A DNA stretch of 64,000 nucleotides, taken from the NCBI GenBank assembly GCA_002746305.1, contig NVWV01000005.1, positions 205,126 through 269,125 of the forward strand, read 5' to 3'. A program made the translations under genes and the position numbers. Below, piece after piece: positions 53,520-64,000 of the stretch. How positions within the stretch are numbered: position 1 is the first letter of the stretch; every line of letters begins with the position of its first letter. The DNA is from Bacteroidota bacterium (GTDB lineage Bacteria; Bacteroidota; Bacteroidia; NS11-12g; UBA9320). Below the pieces are notes generated by a model. The model was given only the letters and a program-made list of their open reading frames with translations, was not told where the DNA came from and did not search any database.

Positions 53520-53594
53520 GGGAGCTTAGCTCAGTTGGTTTAGAGCATCTGCCTTACAAGCAGAGGGTCGCTGGTTCGAATCCAGCAGTTCCCA
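53520..53594 (+). tRNA. tRNA-Val (anticodon TAC)
   Basis: Folded by hand. The acceptor stem is GGGAGCT/AGTTCCC (one G·U). The D-arm is GCTCAGTTGGTTTAGAGC. The anticodon stem TCTGC/GCAGA has loop CTTACAA (anticodon TAC). The T-arm is GCTGGTTCGAATCCAGC with the GTTCGAATC box. Discriminator A; CCA is not encoded. 75 nt. Confidence 0.85.
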
Positions 53595-53616
53595 CATTGA
53601 ATATCAATCATTTACA

Positions 53617-53646
53617 GAGTCTCGCTTCGGCGGGACTTTTTTTATT
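53617..53646 (+). terminator. Rho-independent terminator after tRNA-Val (GTCTCGC-TTCG-GCGGGAC followed by T7)
   Basis: Read directly: a 7-bp stem with a GNRA-like tetraloop, immediately followed by TTTTTTTATTT. Confidence 0.7.
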
Positions 53647-53907
53647 TGCACACGATTTGCATAAAATTCTGTAAGTAAGTAGTAAGTATTCTTCATAGCT
53701 TTGTTTTACTATTTTTAGTGCAAAATGATTTGTAAGTTGATATATCTGTAGGTAAGGCCAAAAAAAATAGAAGCGCTAAGGTCTGTAATTGCTGTTTTTA
53801 CTGCATTAAGGGTGATGTTATCCCCTTTTGGGGATAGATGGTATACTCTTTTGGGGATGTCTTTATAATTAAAAAAGATAGTCTTTTGCATCTTTTAGAT
53901 TCTCAAT

Positions 53908-54864
53908 TTGTTTATTAAAGAAAAAACTATCGATGATTTATTGCTGTCTCTCTATACCAGTATTGAATTACAACCTAAATCAACAATTACAACATCTCGA
54001 GGAGAGTGTATCGAGGAGCTTGGTGTTTATCTTAAGTTAACTAATCCATTGTCCAGGGTTAGTTGGTCAGTTTCACGAGGTAAAGCTTTCAGCGCTCTTG
54101 GAGAATTTCTTTGGTATGTTTCAGGGAGTGATAAATTGGACTTTATTGAGTACTATATACCGAAGTACATTGATGAATCTACAAATGGTGAATCAGTTCA
54201 TGGCGCATATGGTAAAAGAATTTATTGTCAAGAATATTGTCAAATAGAGCAAGTAATTTCTTTATTATCCCAGAAACCAAATACAAGAAGAGCAGTTATA
54301 CAGCTATTTAAGGTCGAAGATCTAAATGTAGAACTAAAAAATATCCCTTGTACTCTTAGCCTTCAGTTTTTCATACGACATTCAAAATTGGATATGCATG
54401 TTTTTATGAGGTCAAATGATGCCTACAAAGGACTTCCTCATGATATTTTTTCATTTACTCTATTGCAAGAATATATTGCTCGAAGGTTAAATGTTGAGTT
54501 AGGTACATACAATCATTTCGTTTCGAGTATGCATGTATACAAATCAGATATTTCTAAAGTTAAAAAATACATTAGTGATGGATATCAATCTAGCTCAAGT
54601 ACTATGACTAAAATGCCTTTTGAAAAGCCTAAAGAAAATTTAGATATATTACTTTTATATGAGAGTAAAATCAGAAAAAAGGGCATTGCTAGCGCTAAGG
54701 GTATTAATGATTATTGGGCCGACTTAATAACTCTGTTAAACATGTATCGATGTTTTAAGGATAAGGATTCTGTTGAATTTGAAAGGCAAATGTCTCTTCT
54801 TAATAATACAGGTTATAGGCAGTTAGCAAAAGAAAAATTTTCACAATTGGTGGGTAAAATATGA
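53908..54864 (+). CDS. Divergent thymidylate-synthase-fold enzyme (pyrimidine-nucleotide C5 hydroxymethylase/methylase-like; not a canonical ThyA) with ~90-aa C-terminal extension
   Basis: Motif alignment to ThyA is clear. NIPCTLSLQFFI corresponds to LPPCHxxxQFYV (catalytic Cys conserved). RSNDAYKGLPHDIFSFTLLQ corresponds to RSCDVFLGLPFNIASYALL. SSMHVYKSD corresponds to GDAHIYSNH, so the ThyA Asn177/His region is altered and an Asp appears as in dCMP hydroxymethylases. It is far more divergent than housekeeping ThyA, which is nearly invariant in these motifs. Confidence 0.6.
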   Translation: MFIKEKTIDDLLLSLYTSIELQPKSTITTSRGECIEELGVYLKLTNPLSRVSWSVSRGKAFSALGEFLWYVSGSDKLDFIEYYIPKYIDESTNGESVHGAYGKRIYCQEYCQIEQVISLLSQKPNTRRAVIQLFKVEDLNVELKNIPCTLSLQFFIRHSKLDMHVFMRSNDAYKGLPHDIFSFTLLQEYIARRLNVELGTYNHFVSSMHVYKSDISKVKKYISDGYQSSSSTMTKMPFEKPKENLDILLLYESKIRKKGIASAKGINDYWADLITLLNMYRCFKDKDSVEFERQMSLLNNTGYRQLAKEKFSQLVGKI

Positions 54865-55778
54865 CAAAGAAATATGTAGAAATGTATGCTGAGGTTGACA
54901 AAGCAATACAGAAATGTAGCTCTGAAAGGCAAATGCCAGGACTAAATGATGAGGTTCGGAAAACTTTGAATTTACAGTTTGTAGATAGTATAAAGAGAAT
55001 AAAAATAATTGAAGTAATAGATAAAAAGGGAGTTGATGATACTTGTTTAAAACTGAATAGTGACACATTTAACCCTATAAAAGCCATTGCGTGGTATAAA
55101 AGTATTGGAAATTATAATGAGGCTATATGGTTGATTTTTCTGGTTACGCATTTTGGTAAGAACATAAATACAAATTGGAATTTGTTAGTTGATACGTATT
55201 CAGGAGCACGTGTAGATTCTATTTGGAATTGGGAAAGCACATCGACGGAGTTGGGAGATTTTTTGGATTGGTTGAATCTAAATGAAGGTAACCTTAAGAA
55301 AGTCGGAAAATTTGGAAATCATCGTAAATATCAGAGTATTAGTGCAGTCTGTAAAAATGGTACTGGTGACGCTTTTACGAGTTATATTAATTGGATTGGA
55401 GAAGATCGAGACCAACTGGCTAAATTACTCGAAGTAACTAATTCAGCTGGAAATTCGTTTGAAAGATTTGATATGCTTTATTCTGCAATAAAAAGAAATG
55501 TAAATTCGTTCGGTAGAATGGCCACTTTCGACTTTTGCACCATGCTTGGAAAGTTTCGACTTTTAGATATTGAACCGGGACACACCTATCTTGCTGGGGC
55601 TACTGGTCCAGTTTCAGGTTTGAAAACATTGTTCGGAAATAAAACATTAAAGGAATTGGATGAAGATGTTATGGTTCTATACCGAAACCTTAATCAGTTT
55701 TACGGTATGCAAATAATAGAAGATGCTATTTGTAATTGGCAAAAATCAACAGCAAAGTATAGATATTTTGGAGGTTAA
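54861..55778 (+). CDS. Unknown 305-aa Trp/aromatic-rich protein, translationally coupled partner of the thymidylate-synthase-like gene (candidate nucleotide/base-processing enzyme)
   Basis: An ATGA start/stop overlap at 54861-54864 indicates co-translation. No motif I can place. It is rich in W/F/Y and has conserved-looking segments (FGNHRKYQS, SFGRMATFDFCTMLGKF). It has no P-loop, HEXXH or Rossmann Gly-rich loop. Confidence 0.45.
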   Translation: MTKKYVEMYAEVDKAIQKCSSERQMPGLNDEVRKTLNLQFVDSIKRIKIIEVIDKKGVDDTCLKLNSDTFNPIKAIAWYKSIGNYNEAIWLIFLVTHFGKNINTNWNLLVDTYSGARVDSIWNWESTSTELGDFLDWLNLNEGNLKKVGKFGNHRKYQSISAVCKNGTGDAFTSYINWIGEDRDQLAKLLEVTNSAGNSFERFDMLYSAIKRNVNSFGRMATFDFCTMLGKFRLLDIEPGHTYLAGATGPVSGLKTLFGNKTLKELDEDVMVLYRNLNQFYGMQIIEDAICNWQKSTAKYRYFGG

Positions 55779-55784
55779 TCGTGA

Positions 55785-56855
55785 TTAAGAATCCAAAGAG
55801 AAAAAACGTTTGTAGCTATTGAGGTAACCTGGCTTTATTATCCCAAAATATTGCATTTGACCTACAACAATTCCCGGAGATATTCCTAGTTTACTTGCAA
55901 ACGCAATGATTTTTCGTTTGTTACTATTTAGTGTTCTTAATTCTTTGTGAAACTCATTTGGAATCAATACTTCCTGCGCAAATAGGTTAGCCTCATCTTC
56001 TTGTTCATTTATCGATTGCTCGATCTTTCGCTCAATTATGAAGTTGTCTTTTTTATGAAGAAAAATATGGCCTGCTTCATGAAAAAAAGTGAACCAAAAT
56101 TGATCATCGGATTTATATCTAAAACTTAATAAGATCATTGCTTTATCTGGTTTTATAAATCTTGTAGCCCCACTTTCAGTACATCCTTTAGGTGTCGGAA
56201 CTACGGCGACAGCAACTCCACATTCAGAACATATTTTTTTTAGTTCAGATATAAAAACACTTGGATTTTTTTTACGAGTAAGCTTTTTAATTTCTTGTAA
56301 TGCTAATTCAAATAATTCTTTATTAAAGGGCTTACAACTTAGTGCCTCACATTCTTTTTCACCTTGCCTTAACCATGTTGAAAGTGAAAATTCATTTGTC
56401 TGATAGGCTTGAGACGTCCTAAATGATATATTGGAGGTGTTAAGCACATAATGTTTTGACCATTCATGGATATTCTTAACGTTAAAAAAGTCTAAACATT
56501 CTTGAAAGGGATTATTTGACTCCCTTATCCAATTGTGCTTAAACATGTCTTTTAAAGGTAACTTCTTTAACCATTCAATTTGAGTAAGCCTATCAATACC
56601 ACTAATCTTATTTCTGTAATTAGCTTCTCTTTCAAGCCAAAAATTGGTAGATCCTCCAAGATGAATGGCTAAATGTTTTGATACTTCATTGTCTATGGTT
56701 ACTTCACTTCTCAATAATCTGCTTGTAAACTCAAACGTCCAGCCAGTTTTATGTGACAAGATTTGTGTAGATATTGATTTAAGTCTCATTAAATCAATAA
56801 TTGTACTCCCTGGACTTGAAGTCCAGTTTGGCTTAAAATTAACTTGATCTTTCAT
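55785..56855 (-). CDS. Fusion protein: N-terminal HigA-like XRE-family HTH domain + C-terminal ImmA/IrrE-family (DUF955, COG2856-like) HEXXH zinc metallopeptidase
   Basis: The HTH segment LKSISTQILSHKTGWTFEFTSRLLRSEVTIDNEVSKHLAIHLGGSTNFWLERE ends in the HigA-characteristic …FWL. The C-terminal FFHEAGHIFLH is the HEXXH motif of ImmA/IrrE peptidases, with the downstream Glu-rich region NEQEDEANLFAQEVLIP typical of the family. Confidence 0.6.
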   Translation of the reverse strand: MKDQVNFKPNWTSSPGSTIIDLMRLKSISTQILSHKTGWTFEFTSRLLRSEVTIDNEVSKHLAIHLGGSTNFWLEREANYRNKISGIDRLTQIEWLKKLPLKDMFKHNWIRESNNPFQECLDFFNVKNIHEWSKHYVLNTSNISFRTSQAYQTNEFSLSTWLRQGEKECEALSCKPFNKELFELALQEIKKLTRKKNPSVFISELKKICSECGVAVAVVPTPKGCTESGATRFIKPDKAMILLSFRYKSDDQFWFTFFHEAGHIFLHKKDNFIIERKIEQSINEQEDEANLFAQEVLIPNEFHKELRTLNSNKRKIIAFASKLGISPGIVVGQMQYFGIIKPGYLNSYKRFFSLDS

Positions 56856-57144
56856 TGGCTTTATTTATAGCTACTACTTTTATTCTACTTTCTTCGTATT
56901 CTTTGTTTAAGTCTTCTCTTAGAATCTCTACTGTTAAACTATATTCTAAATCTAGTTTAATTTCTATTAGTGTCTTGCTTAAACGGTTGATAGGAAATGG
57001 GAATTCATTAAAAGTGTTGACACTCAATAAATCAGATATTCTATTTTTTATTTGGGTGGCAATAGTAATACCAAACATTTGTTCTGCAATATCGGTGTTT
57101 TCACAAACATCTCTAATTTTTTTGTCCCCAAATGACAATATCAA
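56839..57144 (-). CDS. HigB-like toxin candidate (RelE/ParE superfamily) upstream of the HigA-like HTH-peptidase gene
   Basis: The size is small (≤101 aa; alternative start MFGIT… gives 78 aa). The toxin-first order and 17-nt overlap with the HTH gene are typical of higBA. The N-terminal ILSFGDKKIRDVCEN resembles the HigB opening (I-K-S-F-x-x-K-x-L). This is a weak, by-eye similarity only. Confidence 0.3.
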   Translation of the reverse strand: MILSFGDKKIRDVCENTDIAEQMFGITIATQIKNRISDLLSVNTFNEFPFPINRLSKTLIEIKLDLEYSLTVEILREDLNKEYEESRIKVVAINKANERSS

Positions 57145-57382: not shown

Positions 57383-59536
57383 TTATCTAAGCACTTCTAT
57401 TTTTTGACTTCCTGTATTCCCATCTTCATCTGTGAGACTAAGAATGTAATTTCCTGCTGTCAGTGTGGTGTGAATTGTAATAAGTGAAGAGTTCTTGGAT
57501 TTCTGAGTATATGCTAGCTTACCATTCATGTCAAGTATCTTAATGTTTACATTCAGTTGTTCATTGCCCAGTTCAATAGAGATGTTCCCATCACTTGGAT
57601 TTGGATAGATTTTGAATGGTAGACTATTGATTTTAGGAATTGAAGCAAAATCTACCAATAGACTATCGCTCAATTCACTTTCACAACCATACTCGCTCAC
57701 CAGTTGAACTTGCCAGTAACCATTGCTATCTGGGTCTAATCTTCTTTCTGTTGTTTCAAACTTAGCTACACCATCTCTGTACCATCTGTAGGTATGGGCC
57801 AGAGTGTTACTCACTACACTGTCTTTAAAGCGACTTATAAGGGACTTATTGGGATTTGGATATTCTGCAATGGTAAGTGTATCCCATGCTTGGCAAAAGG
57901 TCTTATTGGTAACCTTAATCCTATATACTCCTGCTGTATCTGCAATTAGAGTATCTGCATTAACCCCCTGAAAATGGTCGTAGTCTATTATAGGTCCGAG
58001 GGCATTATCTAGGTTAGGCTCTTCTATAGGTCCTTTGTCACCCCAATGCACACAATGCATATTGGCAGGAGCTTGGAGAACGAGATTGATAGAATCACCA
58101 GTACAGTAAAAAGTATCAGTACCGAGCATATTCAAATCCCACTTGGGATGAATGGTTAAAGTTTTAGTTACGGTATCTGTTCTGCTTCCAATAGTAGCAA
58201 AATGGCTCACTTGCCACTTTCCCGTGTCGGGGAAGGAGTAATTACAATGCTTAGTTAAACTACTGTCTTTGAAGTTACTAACCCCCACTTTTTGAAAACA
58301 CCATTTCCATGAAGTGGCTTGTAATGTATCTCTTCCTTCAAAACTGTAAGAATGACCCCAACAATCTTCGGTGTATGCAAAGTCTATGCTGGGTGTATAG
58401 AAGTAAGAAGCATTGAAGTTAGGAAGGCCGTAAGAAACTATTCTGTTGGGTATTTTATAATGTCTTAAATCTAGACCTGAATTGTTTCCTTGTAAGTTTG
58501 GATATTTAATAACCGATAAATATGAAGAATCTGGGATTGCACCATATATAAAACCATTACTGTAATTCTGAAGTGCCATGTTGGAAAAGGTGTTTTGAGC
58601 GGTCCACAAGATTGTTTTAGAATTATGAACGGAATCAATATTCAAGTTGGATAAGTCGTATTGAATTAGATGTCGACCTCTTTCAGAAGAATAAAGTTTT
58701 GTTTCATCAGGTGAAAAAACACTGTGTATCGGCAACCATAATTTTTGGGAACTCAGTATATAATCAATTTCACCAGTAGAATTATTAAACTTATATAACT
58801 CCACTATTCCATCAGCATTAAACTCATTGAGAGAATATATGGTCAATGCAAGCATTTTGCTTGACGCAGAAAAGGTTAGACTTCCTGCAGCATTTGAGCC
58901 TTTATTTCCAATGTAGTTTTGCGATTCGAAATTTTTTGGACAAATAGGGTCTTGATTGTCACGAATAAGAAAAATATAGCCCTTCTCAGACTTAAACTTA
59001 TGTAAGACTAACCAATTATCTTTTTGATTAGCATGTTTAACTATGCTTTGCATTTCGCAAACTGGGCTCAATATTTTTTTATCTCCTATTTTTACTCCAT
59101 CCTTAAAAGTATAAACATTTGCACCATTTGTTCCTCCAATATCGGTTGTAGTAATTACATTAATAATAGAGTCATTTCCTGAAATTAATACCCCTTGCAC
59201 AGAAGATTTATCTCCCTTGAGTGTTGAAATAATATTGAAATTACTATCATATAAGTTTGCTGCATCAGAGTAGTAAAGCAATTTTCCAGTTTTACTTGAA
59301 AAGGAGGAATATGCTTCAGACGTGTGTACATTCGAGGTGCTGACTATTATCGAATCATCAAAATTTAATAGAATGCTGTCGCCAAAAGTCCAATGCTTGG
59401 TTCTCAAAAAATCGGGATTAGTTTCAGGAATTTGGGCAAATGAGCTTATGTTCAATAGTAAAATTAAACTGAGCAATGTGGATTTCATCAACTGAGGCAT
59501 GTTATAAAGATATGTAACCTGAATCTTATGTTGCAT
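57383..59536 (-). CDS. Secreted protein with T9SS C-terminal sorting domain (beta-propeller/Ig-like cargo)
   Basis: The C-terminus (FKIYPNPSDGNISIELG…GNYILSLTDEDGNTGSQKIEVLR) is a type-A T9SS CTD. The signal peptide is likely at the internal start MKSTLLSLILLLNISSFAQ (about 59488), which would remove the 11-nt overlap with the upstream HTH gene. Confidence 0.55.
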   Translation of the reverse strand: MQHKIQVTYLYNMPQLMKSTLLSLILLLNISSFAQIPETNPDFLRTKHWTFGDSILLNFDDSIIVSTSNVHTSEAYSSFSSKTGKLLYYSDAANLYDSNFNIISTLKGDKSSVQGVLISGNDSIINVITTTDIGGTNGANVYTFKDGVKIGDKKILSPVCEMQSIVKHANQKDNWLVLHKFKSEKGYIFLIRDNQDPICPKNFESQNYIGNKGSNAAGSLTFSASSKMLALTIYSLNEFNADGIVELYKFNNSTGEIDYILSSQKLWLPIHSVFSPDETKLYSSERGRHLIQYDLSNLNIDSVHNSKTILWTAQNTFSNMALQNYSNGFIYGAIPDSSYLSVIKYPNLQGNNSGLDLRHYKIPNRIVSYGLPNFNASYFYTPSIDFAYTEDCWGHSYSFEGRDTLQATSWKWCFQKVGVSNFKDSSLTKHCNYSFPDTGKWQVSHFATIGSRTDTVTKTLTIHPKWDLNMLGTDTFYCTGDSINLVLQAPANMHCVHWGDKGPIEEPNLDNALGPIIDYDHFQGVNADTLIADTAGVYRIKVTNKTFCQAWDTLTIAEYPNPNKSLISRFKDSVVSNTLAHTYRWYRDGVAKFETTERRLDPDSNGYWQVQLVSEYGCESELSDSLLVDFASIPKINSLPFKIYPNPSDGNISIELGNEQLNVNIKILDMNGKLAYTQKSKNSSLITIHTTLTAGNYILSLTDEDGNTGSQKIEVLR

Positions 59537-59759
59537 TCAGTTGATTAAAAAAAACATCAATCTGACATTTATGTATGTTTAAAATTTTCATTAAATACAT
59601 CAAACTTATTTGCTTACCTGCTTCGGCAGCCCAGTAATGCCTTCTGCTTAGGTCATGGTCCACAGCAAATGTTTCATAGCTTGTATACCCTGATTCCAAC
59701 CTCATTTGTTTCAACTTCTTTCCAATTATACCGAATACTATTTCAGGGTTATTTACCAC
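59526..59759 (-). CDS. XRE-family helix-turn-helix transcriptional regulator (77 aa)
   Basis: IGKKLKQMRLESGYTSYETFAVDHDLSRRHYWAAEAGKQISLMYLMKIL has the HTH_3/XRE pattern (hydrophobic core, Q/R DNA-contact positions). Confidence 0.5.
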   Translation of the reverse strand: MVNNPEIVFGIIGKKLKQMRLESGYTSYETFAVDHDLSRRHYWAAEAGKQISLMYLMKILNIHKCQIDVFFNQLNAT

Positions 59760-59892: not shown

Positions 59893-62800
59893 ATGATGAA
59901 AAAATTATCTTATTTTTCGATTGTACTATTTCTTTTTCTAAGTAGTCTTTCCCATGCACAAAACACGTCTTGTTCCTTTGATGAACAACTCGCTCGGTAT
60001 CAACAAGCAGACCCAATCGGCTATACAATGAGCAGAGCTGCTCATGTAGCTGCGGTAAAACAGTACCGAGCTAGCCACCCAAACACTAACCATCTTCTCA
60101 ACTCGAACCAAACGGGCAATAGCAATGCACTATTGGGCGGTTCGTGTGACAGTGCCAAATATATTCTCCCTGTAGTGATTCATGTCATTCACGATCCATT
60201 GGATACATTGGGAAGCGGGAGTAACATCAGTCACGCACAAATACAAAATCAGTTGGAAGAATTGAATCACGCCTTTGGCAACTACTATATGCCGCATGGT
60301 CCTAGTTCTGTAAACACTGGAATCAAATTTTGTTTGGCACAAACTCGACCTGATGGTTCTAGTTTCAACGGCGTGAACCGTATCGCTAGTAGCCGCAGTA
60401 CACATCCCCGTTGGGAAGAAGATAGCTTACTAGCATTAATACACTATCCAACGGATAAGTACATCAACATCTTTGTGGTAGATAAAATAATAGATAGCAC
60501 AGGAAACAATGGAGGGGTGCTAGCTTATGGTAGCTACCCGTATTGGGGCAGTAGAGCAAGTGACCTCATTGTCATCCGTCATGATTGGTTTGGAAAATAT
60601 ACCTCCTCACTACCTGCATTGGATGGTTTAGCAGAAGGCAAAGTATTGGCCCATGAAATGGGACATTATTTGGGTTTGTTTCATCCCTTTGAGGGTGGTT
60701 GTACTGGTACAAATGCTAACGATTGTATGAGTAAGGGAGATATGTGTTGTGATGTGCCTGCCGTTGCTGCTGATGTAAATGGAGGGTGTAACAGTGTAAA
60801 CACCTGTTTTGAGAGCTATAGCAGTAATCCACCCGACCAAAAAGAAAACTACATGGACTATAGCTACCCCAGTTGTAAAAACACCTTCACCGCCGACCAA
60901 GCAGATGTAATGTACACCACATTGGAAGGTATACGAAGTAGTTTGTGGAATCCGACCAGTATCAATTCGCTCAATCTGTCGTGCTGCATTAACTCAGCCC
61001 AGTTTATAGGGCATACCGATGGGTGTAACATAGATAGTTTGAACTTACAGGCTTATGCCTATTCGGGTGGAGCTTCATACACATGGAATTTTTATAAAAA
61101 CGGAAGTTTATTTAAAACAGAAACCGTCACTACATCTGTCTATCAAGTGTTACTGGACTCAGGCAACTACGATGTACAACTGACCATTACCACAGGAAGT
61201 CAAAGTTTTAGTAAACTGGTAGAGAATGCAATGACTATTTACAAATGCGATAGCTTATTACCCAGTACACAAGGTTCATGGTATTTCGGGCATAATGCAG
61301 GAATGCGGTTTTATGATAATGGCTTGGTATTAAAGGATATTGAACCTTGGAAAAATCAAGTCCCTACTCAAATCAATTCAGGAGGTGCAACCCTGAGTAT
61401 GAGTGATAGTATGGGTGATTTATTGTTTTATGGTGGAGCAGAGTATATCAATAGTAACCTAAGAATCTTTGATTCAGACTATAAACAAATGAAGGGTAGC
61501 CCGATACTGGGAGACTTTAATGCAACCCAAGGAGCAGTTACCATTCCAGTACCCACTAGTGATAGTTTATACTACATCATTCATACGGACAAAGCGGGTA
61601 GAAGTCCGTTTTATTCGATTATTGATATATCCATAGGTATAGATAGTATTATCTCAAAGAATGTATCCATAACAGGACCTGTAGGTGCAGGGGGCTCTAC
61701 AACTATTGGGCAACTAAAAGAAGGTCTTACCTGTATCCCAAAATGCGGGAATGAAGACTACTGGGTCTTGTTGAGTAGGTACGATACCAGTACAGGTAAT
61801 TCATCCATTGTGAAACTCATTGCTGCAAGTGATACGATTACCTATCATTCGGCACAGAACGTTCCTAACATGGAAGTAAGTGCTAGTATGGTAGTTTCTC
61901 CAGACGGTAAGCTAGTGACTATCGGTAATCATTTGTATTCTTTTTGTAACTCTGATGGTAATCTTACGCTCATAGAAACAGATAGTAGTGATTTTTTAAT
62001 ATACTCGTTAGCTGCATCCTTTTCTCCCAATAGCAAACTTCTTTATCGTCTAGAGTACTATTTTGATCCAGGCTTTGCGTTCTATCCCAAAGAACATAAT
62101 TATCTACTCCATCAAATAGATCCTTATGCGGTATCTCCTGTTAACACTAAAATACTTATTAAAGAAACAGAATACCACCGCTATATGCAGTTAGCTCCCA
62201 ACAACAAGATTTATATGTCCGTTCTAAACGGAGCTTTACCCTATGTTTCATCCATTAATGATCCCAATGCTCGAATTCAGGATAGTTCGCAGTTTGATTA
62301 TACCGAAGAATCCGTATTTACTATAAAGAATGGTATTGGAGGGATGTCACAAGGAATAACCAATCATATCAATGCCAAAGCCTTGGTAGACTTAGATACC
62401 AATTTTGTGATTCGAGAAATGAGTTGCTTTACCAAACGATTTTTACCAAGCACCTGTTGTGCATCTAGTTATTACTGGAATTTCGGAGATGGGACTACCA
62501 GTACCAGTATGGAAATAGAACATACATATGCCGACACGGGTTGGTATGATGTAAGTCTAGTAATGAATGGTTCAGATACAATCACCAAAAGAATCCGAGT
62601 GGGTATTTCACCTGAGAGTTTAGAAATACAAGGAACAGATGTATTCTGTACTTCTAACTCCCCCATCTTGTATTCTGTCCTCTTTGATGCAGATTACAGC
62701 TATTCTTGGACCGCTACAGGTGCTTTAGGTCAAAGCAGTACCGATGAGCGACAAACTGAGGTTACATGGCAAGATTCGGGAATACTCAAAGTAGTAGTCA

Positions 62801-64000
62801 CCGATAAAATTACCGAGTGTACGGATTCCAATGAAATAAAAGTGTACCGACAGGATTTTGTACCTGTAGACTTTGAATACAGTTCTGAGAACTGTGCAAC
62901 ATTTGTCTTTGAAACCTCACATCATTGCGATAGTTCCTATTACTGGAATTTTGGAGATGGAACGCTAGACTCTACCCAAAACACACTGCACACCTATTCA
63001 GATACAGGGTACTACCAAGTACAATTAATCTCAGGTGGAGATACGGTTAATAAATCCATCTATGTAGGTATGCTTGCAAGTGATTTGGTACTGACTGGTG
63101 CAGCTACCAATTGCGACGATACAGCATTCTATAATTATGCTGTTCCTTTTAATCCTAACCATACCTATACGTGGAGTAGTACAGGAACAGATTTGTTCTC
63201 ATCTACGGATAATAGTGCTGTTACCAAGTGGCTCAGTACTGGAACAATTGAAGTCATTATTTATAACACTATCAATTCTTGTACGGATACTATAGGAATG
63301 GATGTTACTAAAAACTTACCTGAATTAGATTTTGCGTTTAGCTCTTCCAATTGCAAGGATGTTCAGTTTACAACCGATTACTATTGCGGACTACCCATAA
63401 AATGGATTTTTGGTGATAGTACTATTTGGGATATTCCTAAAACAAGCTCCATTCAAAACCCTATCAACACATACGCAACTGGGAGAACATACTATGCCAG
63501 TTTAGTGGTAAATGGAGATACGATAACTAAGAAAATAGTAGTAGGATCAGAGTCCATTAGCGTATCAGGATTGCCCAATCCAATCTGTGATACCAGTCAA
63601 TTTTATGAAATGACAATAGATAATTACAACCCTGCGACGACCTATACATGGGGCTCTTTTGGAGATTCCGTTTCAGTAGTTAATGATTCCACCTATTCCA
63701 TAAAGGTGTCGGGGAACTTTACCAGTAAAGGCTTTTTTGCACAAAGCGTAAATTCATGTGTTAGTAGCTATGATTTGACCTACACGGTATATACAGGCTT
63801 GCCTTTTATGAATCCTCAAATAACGGGGACAACTATCTTTTGTGACACATCGAAGGTTAATCCATATAGTGTTCCTAACGATCCCTATCAATATGCATGG
63901 TCGGTAAACAACAACAGTATACTAATTGCTGGAGCATCGGATAATGAGGTTTCGGTAAAATGGAGAGCAAATGGACAACTTAAAGTGGTTATTTCAGATC
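59893..64000 (+). CDS. Giant secreted M43-family (pappalysin/cytophagalysin-type) zinc metalloprotease followed by tandem PKD-like repeat modules; 3'-partial (runs off window end); absent from the ORF track
   Basis: Translated manually with no stop through 64000 (>1369 aa). Signal peptide MMKKLSYFSIVLFLFLSSLSHAQ. The metzincin motif is HEMGHYLGLFHPFEGGC (HEXXHXXGXXH). There are repeated ~140-aa units each containing SYYWNFGDGT (PKD WxFGDG motif) plus a second Cys-containing module (TYTWSSTGTD…). G+C is visibly higher than the surroundings across about 60.0-61.2 kb. Confidence 0.75.
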   Translation, partial: MMKKLSYFSIVLFLFLSSLSHAQNTSCSFDEQLARYQQADPIGYTMSRAAHVAAVKQYRASHPNTNHLLNSNQTGNSNALLGGSCDSAKYILPVVIHVIHDPLDTLGSGSNISHAQIQNQLEELNHAFGNYYMPHGPSSVNTGIKFCLAQTRPDGSSFNGVNRIASSRSTHPRWEEDSLLALIHYPTDKYINIFVVDKIIDSTGNNGGVLAYGSYPYWGSRASDLIVIRHDWFGKYTSSLPALDGLAEGKVLAHEMGHYLGLFHPFEGGCTGTNANDCMSKGDMCCDVPAVAADVNGGCNSVNTCFESYSSNPPDQKENYMDYSYPSCKNTFTADQADVMYTTLEGIRSSLWNPTSINSLNLSCCINSAQFIGHTDGCNIDSLNLQAYAYSGGASYTWNFYKNGSLFKTETVTTSVYQVLLDSGNYDVQLTITTGSQSFSKLVENAMTIYKCDSLLPSTQGSWYFGHNAGMRFYDNGLVLKDIEPWKNQVPTQINSGGATLSMSDSMGDLLFYGGAEYINSNLRIFDSDYKQMKGSPILGDFNATQGAVTIPVPTSDSLYYIIHTDKAGRSPFYSIIDISIGIDSIISKNVSITGPVGAGGSTTIGQLKEGLTCIPKCGNEDYWVLLSRYDTSTGNSSIVKLIAASDTITYHSAQNVPNMEVSASMVVSPDGKLVTIGNHLYSFCNSDGNLTLIETDSSDFLIYSLAASFSPNSKLLYRLEYYFDPGFAFYPKEHNYLLHQIDPYAVSPVNTKILIKETEYHRYMQLAPNNKIYMSVLNGALPYVSSINDPNARIQDSSQFDYTEESVFTIKNGIGGMSQGITNHINAKALVDLDTNFVIREMSCFTKRFLPSTCCASSYYWNFGDGTTSTSMEIEHTYADTGWYDVSLVMNGSDTITKRIRVGISPESLEIQGTDVFCTSNSPILYSVLFDADYSYSWTATGALGQSSTDERQTEVTWQDSGILKVVVTDKITECTDSNEIKVYRQDFVPVDFEYSSENCATFVFETSHHCDSSYYWNFGDGTLDSTQNTLHTYSDTGYYQVQLISGGDTVNKSIYVGMLASDLVLTGAATNCDDTAFYNYAVPFNPNHTYTWSSTGTDLFSSTDNSAVTKWLSTGTIEVIIYNTINSCTDTIGMDVTKNLPELDFAFSSSNCKDVQFTTDYYCGLPIKWIFGDSTIWDIPKTSSIQNPINTYATGRTYYASLVVNGDTITKKIVVGSESISVSGLPNPICDTSQFYEMTIDNYNPATTYTWGSFGDSVSVVNDSTYSIKVSGNFTSKGFFAQSVNSCVSSYDLTYTVYTGLPFMNPQITGTTIFCDTSKVNPYSVPNDPYQYAWSVNNNSILIAGASDNEVSVKWRANGQLKVVISD

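Follow-up and report, generated by a model that had tools for sequence, protein, structure and literature searches.

Overview of the locus

The DNA analysed here (the window) is a stretch of 64,000 nucleotides from a Bacteroidota bacterium (assembly GCA_002746305.1, contig NVWV01000005.1, positions 205,126 to 269,125), and the subject of this work is a gene within it that encodes a protein of 305 residues. The protein is almost certainly a clade-3 alpha-glutamyl/putrescinyl thymine pyrophosphorylase (aGPT-Pplase3) of the amino acid:DNA transferase (ADDT) family, with a fold like that of helix-hairpin-helix (HhH) glycosylases. Its gene is preceded on the same strand by a gene for a ThyA-like enzyme and is followed by two genes on the opposite strand. 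One of these encodes an Xre-type helix-turn-helix (HTH) domain fused to an M78 metallopeptidase, and the other encodes a small protein (Table 1). The same genes are called by an independent public annotation of the 312-kb metagenome-assembled Bacteroidota scaffold.

The start ATG of the 305-residue open reading frame (ORF) is shared with the TGA stop of the ThyA-like ORF in an ATGA overlap. The ORF, its length, and the overlap are as given in a preliminary description made from the sequence alone, and the three peptides quoted there are located at residues 75, 119, and 134. The same description took the overlap to mean obligate co-expression, which it does not prove; what it shows is operon organisation and possible translational coupling. 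The protein had also been called aromatic-rich, a label that fits tryptophan but not the aromatic residues as a whole. Tryptophan makes up 2.6% of the residues against a median of 1.1%, placing the protein in the top 3 of the 36 long ORFs of the window, and the majority of the eight tryptophans are kept across the family. In contrast, the combined share of Trp, Phe, and Tyr is 12.1%, less than one standard deviation (SD) from the median of the same ORFs (10.5%; SD 3.2).

The 305-residue protein belongs to the aGPT-Pplase/ADDT family

The protein matches Pfam family PF18746 (aGPT-Pplase3) with an E-value of 7.3e-73 and a score of 245.8 bits (cut-off 25), and the match spans profile positions 3-277 of 279. 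In addition, it matches PF18724 (ADDT) with an E-value of 2.3e-53 and a score of 181.7 bits (cut-off 26.2); the experimentally validated transferase gp51 of phage M6 scores 159.6 bits on the same profile. In a large collection of proteins, 3,030 homologs with a typical length of ~305 residues were retrieved, several of which carry the NCBI name [quoted passage not shown]. The fold is all-alpha and consists of two bundles, and it matches with confidence the HhH-glycosylase-like structure of PaMx11 gp46 (PDB 8z2m). The protein is thus not an orphan, as it had been described, nor is it of unknown fold: more than 3,000 homologs exist, some already named, and the structural match is to a solved enzyme of the same family. 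The accompanying suggestion, that it is a nucleotide- or base-transferase partner of the kind found in phage thymidine hypermodification, fared better, as the phage amino-acid:DNA transferases are among its homologs.

Phage M6 gp55 (L084:17261-18232), formerly placed in clade 1 of the aGPT-Pplases, matches the Pfam family HMUDK_hel, the helical domain of 5-hydroxymethyl-deoxyuridine (5-hmdU) DNA kinase, with an E-value of 8e-56. The match of the window protein to HMUDK_hel is faint (E=0.016). Clade 3 therefore stands much nearer to the transferases than to the clade associated with the kinase.

Table 1 Features of the cassette and its upstream region
Feature	Position	Strand	Basis
tRNA-Val(TAC)	53520..53595	+	ARAGORN; Rfam tRNA, 74.2 bits
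Terminator-like hairpin of tRNA-Val	53616-53639	+	Terminator scan
Tandem 22-nt direct repeat with a 16-nt palindrome per copy (ATCCCCTTTTGGGGAT and ATACTCTTTTGGGGAT)	53814..53858	+	Candidate operator
ThyA-like enzyme, predicted dCMP 5-hydroxymethylase, 318 aa, first operon gene	53908..54864	+	Pfam, MilA match, specificity residues
Clade-3 aGPT-Pplase, amino-acid:DNA-transferase-family protein, 305 aa	54861..55778	+	Target gene
Xre-type HTH fused to M78 (ImmA/IrrE) metallopeptidase, HEAGH motif intact, 356 aa	55785..56855	-	Pfam, PADLOC
Small ORF of 101 aa, opening a regulator/toxin–antitoxin-like operon	56839..57144	-	Family conservation

Comparison with phage transferases and glycosylases

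According to Lee et al. (2018, 2021), the family was defined in 2013 by Aravind and co-workers, who predicted its fold and Cys/Glu site and noted cellular homologs. It has been catalogued since then, and phage clade 2 alone has been characterised biochemically, by reconstitution (PMC8989533) and by crystallography (PMC11472151). For clade 3, no biochemical study came up in the literature. The phage enzymes require a Cys and a nearby Glu. In the mechanism proposed for them, C6 of 5-phosphomethyl-deoxyuridine (5-PmdU) is attacked by the Cys, so that the phosphate is expelled to leave an exocyclic methylene, on which an amino acid then acts as nucleophile (PMC8989533). In the structure of gp46, the active-site residues are Cys247 and Glu243/Thr244, the glycine is held by Trp146 of an FGPW motif and by Lys150, and an Arg-rich loop contacts the DNA backbone (PMC11472151).

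To map these residues, a clade-3 profile was aligned to M6 gp51 and to a seven-sequence clade-2 profile. Residues E287-D288-x-x-C291 of the window protein align with E243-T244-x-x-C247 of gp46, the ETVLC motif of the phage enzymes. E287 and C291 are present in 81/81 clade-3 sequences, their placement being by sequence alignment. The Thr beside the catalytic Glu of gp46 is replaced by an Asp (D288) that is invariant in clade 3, and the whole segment forms an invariant motif, E-D-x-x-C-N-W-x-K, in a protein that had been said to contain no recognisable catalytic motif. E287, D288, and C291 are therefore candidate catalytic residues, and are likely used in a covalent attack on C6 of a C5-hydroxymethyl pyrimidine.

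The basic loop N153-H154-R155-K156 aligns with the Arg-rich loop of gp46, and N-H-R-K is near-invariant in clade 3. In addition, residues F217-G218-R219 of the HhH-type hairpin align with F-G-P of the phage FGPW motif, with D224 further on. The glycine pocket of clade 2 is kept neither in the window protein nor in the other clade-3 sequences: position 220, aligned to Trp146 of gp46, is T, L, M, or I, and the invariant D224 stands at the position of Lys150. With neither the Trp nor the Lys of the glycine pocket retained, the co-substrate of clade 3 would be different or absent.

Clade 3 differs from the clade-2 transferases (M6 gp51; PaMx11 gp46, also known as PUGT; Salmonella phage ViI gp247) in further respects. 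The identity is ~11-17%, and clade 3 is bacterial and plasmid-borne, whereas clade 2 comes from phages. No 5-hmdU DNA kinase, pyridoxal phosphate-dependent decarboxylase, or radical SAM partner is encoded beside clade 3. Moreover, its partner hydroxymethylase has a cytosine signature (see below), whereas a uracil type, with Asn at the position of residue 177 of E. coli thymidylate synthase (TS), is expected for clade 2.

The 305-residue protein has no sequence-level match to the HhH-GPD glycosylases (AlkA, EndoIII/NTHL1, MutY, OGG) or to the queuine salvage protein DUF2419/Qng1. In contrast to the HhH-GPD glycosylases, clade 3 has no Schiff-base Lys, and its conserved catalytic candidates are a Cys, a Glu, and an Asp towards the C-terminus. 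In an alignment judged by eye, the catalytic Asp that HhH-GPD glycosylases have behind a Gly/Pro-rich loop ~20 residues past the hairpin has no apparent invariant counterpart in clade 3.

The ThyA-like partner is a predicted dCMP hydroxymethylase

The ThyA-like protein matches the Pfam family Thymidylat_synt (E=2.7e-25) and falls far under every NCBIfam equivalog cut-off for thymidylate synthase. Its closest solved relative is the CMP 5-hydroxymethylase MilA (E=1e-40), whereas true thymidylate synthases match at ~1e-16. In MilA, Lys133 and Ala176 suit ribose, in place of the Arg and Ser that suit deoxyribose, and Asp186, in place of Asn, sets the preference for cytosine over uracil (PMC5175136). 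The key residues of the ThyA-like protein are the catalytic C148 and E66 together with R127, S169, D179, H209, and Y211. Among 67 homologs from related loci, C148, S169, D179, and H209 are invariant, and an Arg is present at position 127 in 65. With Arg127, Ser169, and Asp179, the enzyme is therefore predicted to hydroxymethylate deoxycytidine monophosphate (dCMP) rather than dUMP, and not to be a dTMP synthase. The comparison with phage thymidine hypermodification in the preliminary description pointed to a uracil/thymidylate-type partner; Asp179, the cytosine (dCMP) signature found in 67/67 homologs, speaks against this.

T4 gp42, a dCMP hydroxymethylase, and Streptomyces MilA share with the ThyA-like partner the TS fold, the catalytic Cys and Glu, and an Asp in place of the uracil-specifying Asn177. 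MilA prefers ribo-CMP and has Lys133 and Ala176, whereas the window enzyme has Arg127 and Ser169, as in the T4 enzyme and TS; a deoxy substrate is therefore predicted. The genes that accompany these relatives are missing from the cassette. Unlike T4, it encodes no dNMP kinase, dCTPase, or glucosyltransferase, and unlike the MilA/BcmA systems, it encodes no MilB-type N-glycosidase, as none of the four cassette proteins has a Pfam match to that family.

The enzymes are encoded in a conserved cassette

To define the gene neighbourhood, one genome per species was pattern-scanned, giving 456 loci with a relative, of which 80 were retrieved and compared by tblastn and ORF clustering. Among the groups represented are Bacteroidota, Acidobacteriota, Planctomycetota, Proteobacteria, Actinobacteria, Verrucomicrobiota, and Chloroflexota. 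In 71 of the 80 loci, a ThyA-like gene precedes the aGPT-Pplase3 gene on the same strand, which amounts to 71 of the 72 informative loci, and the co-occurrence with ThyA-like genes that the preliminary description had proposed to check is thus borne out. Eight of the nine loci without the gene have too short an upstream sequence. The ninth, in Chryseolinea serpens (L012:4568-12236), was rejected as a true exception to the linkage: it is a decayed, 5'-deleted copy. The ThyA-like gene of this copy is deleted and the accessory gene described next is 5'-truncated; the remnant sits between genes for an AbiEii-like nucleotidyltransferase and an AriA/OLD-like ATPase, a defence-island setting.

In 54/80 loci, an accessory gene encoding a protein of ~268 residues stands between the ThyA-like and aGPT-Pplase3 genes. 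The protein has no Pfam match and no sequence match in the PDB, and structure prediction gives it a fold like that of the uracil-DNA glycosylases UDG/TDG, with a GINPG-like motif. The gene is absent from the window cassette. Loci without it are scattered over the aGPT-Pplase3 tree, and the idea that they form a separate lineage was rejected.

The analogy with the phage pathway would lead one to expect a kinase; however, no kinase family occurs among the conserved neighbours in the 80 loci. Within the window, no kinase is found among the 25 most frequent of the 66 Pfam families listed for its 42 long ORFs. For comparison, gp54 of phage M6 scores on the HMUDK profile. Likewise, no dNMP kinase, dCTPase, decarboxylase, radical SAM enzyme, or other tailoring enzyme belongs to the cassette, and no conserved cognate restriction nuclease lies beside it in the 80 loci.

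A gene for a MutT/Nudix-type hydrolase is found at either edge of the cassette in 13/80 loci, for example upstream of the ThyA-like gene (L005, L018, L020, L043) or beyond the small ORF (L015, L021, L024, L031, L060, L081). The hydrolase may be a further optional component, such as a pyrophosphatase for modified dNTPs.

The convergent HTH–M78 pair resembles PD-lambda-2

The gene for the HTH–M78 protein lies directly downstream of the aGPT-Pplase3 gene, in convergent orientation, in 75/80 loci, and its products are 32-52% identical. The window copy matches Pfam Peptidase_M78 (E=2.6e-12) and, weakly, HTH_26; with PADLOC, it matches PD-Lambda-2_B over nearly its full length (E=7.3e-31) and capP (E=1e-9). 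The small ORF overlaps the start of the HTH–M78 gene by 17 nt, and a member of the same small-gene family (~110 residues) precedes the HTH–M78 gene in 70/80 loci. The family appears weakly HigB/RelE-like: of 17 members, 2 match the Pfam family HigB-like_toxin (best E=1.6e-4), and the window copy is not one of them. The preliminary description had overlooked both genes as parts of the cassette, and had likened to a phage cluster what is a bacterial, mobile one.

PD-lambda-2 has been validated as an abortive-infection system; its component B is toxic when on its own and is neutralised by component A (Vassallo et al. 2022). In that system, the gene for HigB-like A is followed by an overlapping gene for the Xre-HTH/peptidase B, and the small ORF and the HTH–M78 gene are arranged likewise. 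The HTH–M78 protein also resembles the ImmR/ImmA and CapH/CapP regulators, which pair an HTH with an M78 peptidase. Two differences stand out. PD-lambda-2 has a third gene, C (P4-antitoxin-like), which the window cassette lacks, with no PADLOC match. On the other hand, the pair is linked in our cassette to a convergent enzyme operon, for which PD-lambda-2 has no counterpart.

The cassette is mobile

Clade 3 is the cellular branch of the family: it is present in at least 456 species, which belong to more than 10 phyla, and is also carried by conjugative plasmids. The plasmids on which the family was found number 10, of which five are conjugative, and its neighbours there are those of the cassette; on an Agrobacterium plasmid, a four-gene version like that of the window adjoins an IS30 transposase. 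No match to the 305-residue protein was found in 50,697 phage genomes (tblastn, E<=1e-3), and a prophage or phage origin of clade 3 was discarded as unsupported.

In a random sample of 148 ORFs lying no more than 5 kb from the cassette in 43 genomes, a survey with no matched background control, the commonest Pfam family is phage integrase (7), and resolvases and recombinases are present too. PADLOC, likewise with no matched control, reports on the flanks components of Type I, III, and IV restriction systems, AbiEi, AbiEii, GajB, AriA, Mrr, and mad genes.

In the window, the cassette is surrounded by housekeeping genes. The gene for tRNA-Val(TAC) stands 312 bp upstream, a typical insertion point of genomic islands. 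No second, att-like copy of the 3' end of the tRNA gene is found within the window, and the G+C content of the cassette (0.30-0.36) is no different from that of its surroundings there.

Proposed function

We favour, with some reserve, a reading in which the 305-residue protein performs Cys-based chemistry on a hydroxymethyl-pyrimidine and is one effector of a mobile conflict or defence cassette. The protein would work like its phage relatives M6 gp51, ViI gp247, and PaMx11 gp46. The thiolate of Cys291, helped by Glu287 and Asp288, would add to C6 of a flipped-out 5-hydroxymethyl-pyrimidine; the addition would activate the exocyclic C5 carbon, whose substituent would then be replaced or removed. 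Because the co-transcribed ThyA-like enzyme has the signature of a dCMP hydroxymethylase, the base is most likely 5-hydroxymethylcytosine (5hmC), and not phosphorylated 5-hydroxymethyluracil; no DNA kinase would provide a phosphate leaving group. It is plausible that 5hmC is supplied via the partner enzyme and attacked in DNA. The enzyme predicted here thus has a Cys291/Glu287 dyad, a cytosine-based substrate, no kinase step, and a co-substrate pocket unlike that of the phage enzymes. Its predicted setting is a compact mobile cassette that has a PD-lambda-2-like HTH–peptidase pair and usually a UDG-fold protein.

The cassette, with its four or five genes (the dCMP-hydroxymethylase-like enzyme, the aGPT-Pplase3, the optional UDG-fold protein, and the HigB-like and Xre-HTH/M78 pair), is probably a mobile system for anti-phage or inter-element conflict that is regulated by, or coupled to, this pair. 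The toxin–antitoxin-like HTH–peptidase pair would control or sense, and the enzymes would alter DNA or its precursors.

A related system has been predicted by DefensePredictor (Science 2026). In the figures of that report that bear on it (Fig. 6F, S12A), a gene with an aGPT-Pplase domain stands by a homolog of a known defence gene; the system is sometimes found in defence islands and is given as a prediction, unvalidated. Like our cassette, it places an aGPT-Pplase-domain gene beside a defence-gene homolog, and enzymes of nucleotide modification have been put to new use in bacterial defence. The two are likely the same system, an identity left unverified by a source that, in the parts concerned, does not spell out the gene content. 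The report validated other systems with thymidylate-synthase and 5-hmdU-kinase domains; as described there, these include kinases, whereas the window cassette has none.

A more specific form of the conflict scenario, in which marking and destruction take place at the level of a modified base, is a speculative extension that we put forward tentatively. Upon a trigger, the dCMP hydroxymethylase would place 5-hydroxymethyl-dC in replicating DNA, mostly that of the invader, or in the nucleotide pool. In a second step that depends on its Cys but on no kinase, the aGPT-Pplase3 would turn hmC in DNA into a bulky adduct, a DNA–protein crosslink, or an abasic or nicked site, joined by the TDG/MUG-like UDG-fold protein where one is encoded. 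The cassette would put "stolen" DNA-hypermodification chemistry to use in a new kind of system against phages or plasmids, and the aGPT-Pplase3 would be the first cytosine-directed member of its family. If the role is defensive, bacteria would be turning phage-style base-hypermodification chemistry on invaders. The cassette might also provide a new enzyme with which to derivatise 5hmC in DNA in a site-directed manner.

Alternative readings

The host could instead modify its own DNA, incorporating its own hm-dCMP and having it decorated by the aGPT-Pplase3 as an epigenetic or protective mark comparable to the hypermodified thymidines of phages or to the 7-deazaguanine system Dpd of bacteria. 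Post-replicative DNA hypermodification is the only known role of the homologous enzymes, the hydroxymethylase is tightly linked, as it is in phages, and homologs in eubacterial genomes were noted by Lee et al. 2018. If this were the case, a new cellular DNA base would be at hand. However, the cassette is devoid of the dNMP kinase, dCTPase, 5-hm DNA kinase, decarboxylase, radical SAM, and other tailoring enzymes, no conserved cognate restriction nuclease adjoins it, and the glycine-binding residues are lost. Moreover, the toxin–antitoxin-like pair and the glycosylase-fold partner suit attack or regulation better than genome-wide marking. We consider self-modification unlikely.

Action on free nucleotides, with dCMP converted to hm-dCMP and then hydrolysed or derivatised by the aGPT-Pplase3, seems improbable to us as well. 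Such a route would resemble MilA/MilB, BcmA/BcmB, and the HhH-like queuosine-monophosphate glycosylase DUF2419/Qng1, and would either drain the dC pool (defence by depletion) or yield a toxic or signalling pyrimidine. Against it, the loops that match the DNA-backbone contacts of gp46 keep their basic character, with N-H-R-K near-invariant. In addition, the fold of the optional third enzyme is that of UDG, a family of DNA enzymes; the canonical glycosylase Asp past the hairpin does not look invariant by eye; and no further biosynthetic genes are conserved.

Less probable still is a role in sensing or restricting phage DNA with pre-existing hydroxymethyl-pyrimidines, in which the Cys traps or processes the foreign base of phages with T-even-like 5hmC or SPO1-/SP10-like 5-hydroxymethyluracil, or of M6-/ViI-like hypermodified phages, and the ThyA-like protein plays another role, such as a decoy or self-immunity. 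The UDG/TDG family includes enzymes (TDG, SMUG1) that excise oxidised 5-methylpyrimidines. The UDG/TDG-like fold and GINPG-like motif of the accessory protein are consistent with such a role, as are a fold and a Cys/Glu dyad that recognise C5-substituted pyrimidines in DNA, and the defence-like flanks. However, a pure sensor or nuclease would not need a dCMP hydroxymethylase, and one that looks fully catalytic is present in 71/72 informative cassettes.

Finally, an orphan of unknown fold that merely stacks on nucleobases as a generic aromatic-rich partner or sensor of the ThyA-like enzyme, a reading to which the enriched and mostly conserved tryptophans and the ever-adjoining ThyA-like gene lend some appeal, is rejected as extremely improbable, being refuted by the strong Pfam matches, the thousands of homologs, and the confident match to a solved family enzyme, with a total aromatic share within 1 SD of the window median.

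Regulatory sites and neighbouring genes

The tandem repeat is located 50-95 bp upstream of the ThyA-like start. Its pattern gives 2 matches against 0.43 expected, a marginal excess, as 2 were reached in 4/100 shuffles. No sequence-conserved equivalent is found across the loci, and the repeat is a candidate operator for the window locus only. An operator common to both promoter regions of the cassette was considered and rejected, a 10-mer being shared between them in 6/63 loci against 8.2 by chance. A scan of the cassette and its leader with Rfam returned the tRNA only. A sigma-70 promoter scan gave 20 sites where chance predicts 17.4, which is background level, with a model that is inappropriate for Bacteroidota.

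Beyond the small ORF, a 77-residue Xre-type HTH ORF (59526-59759, minus strand) overlaps the start of a gene for a 717-residue protein sorted by the type IX secretion system (Por_Secre_tail; 57383-59536, minus strand). This HTH ORF is probably unrelated to the cassette. The G+C content rises to 0.39-0.44 across 59900-64000, where a very large ORF starts on the plus strand; in the public annotation it exceeds 2,200 residues, has an M43 peptidase domain and PKD repeats, and continues past the end of the window.

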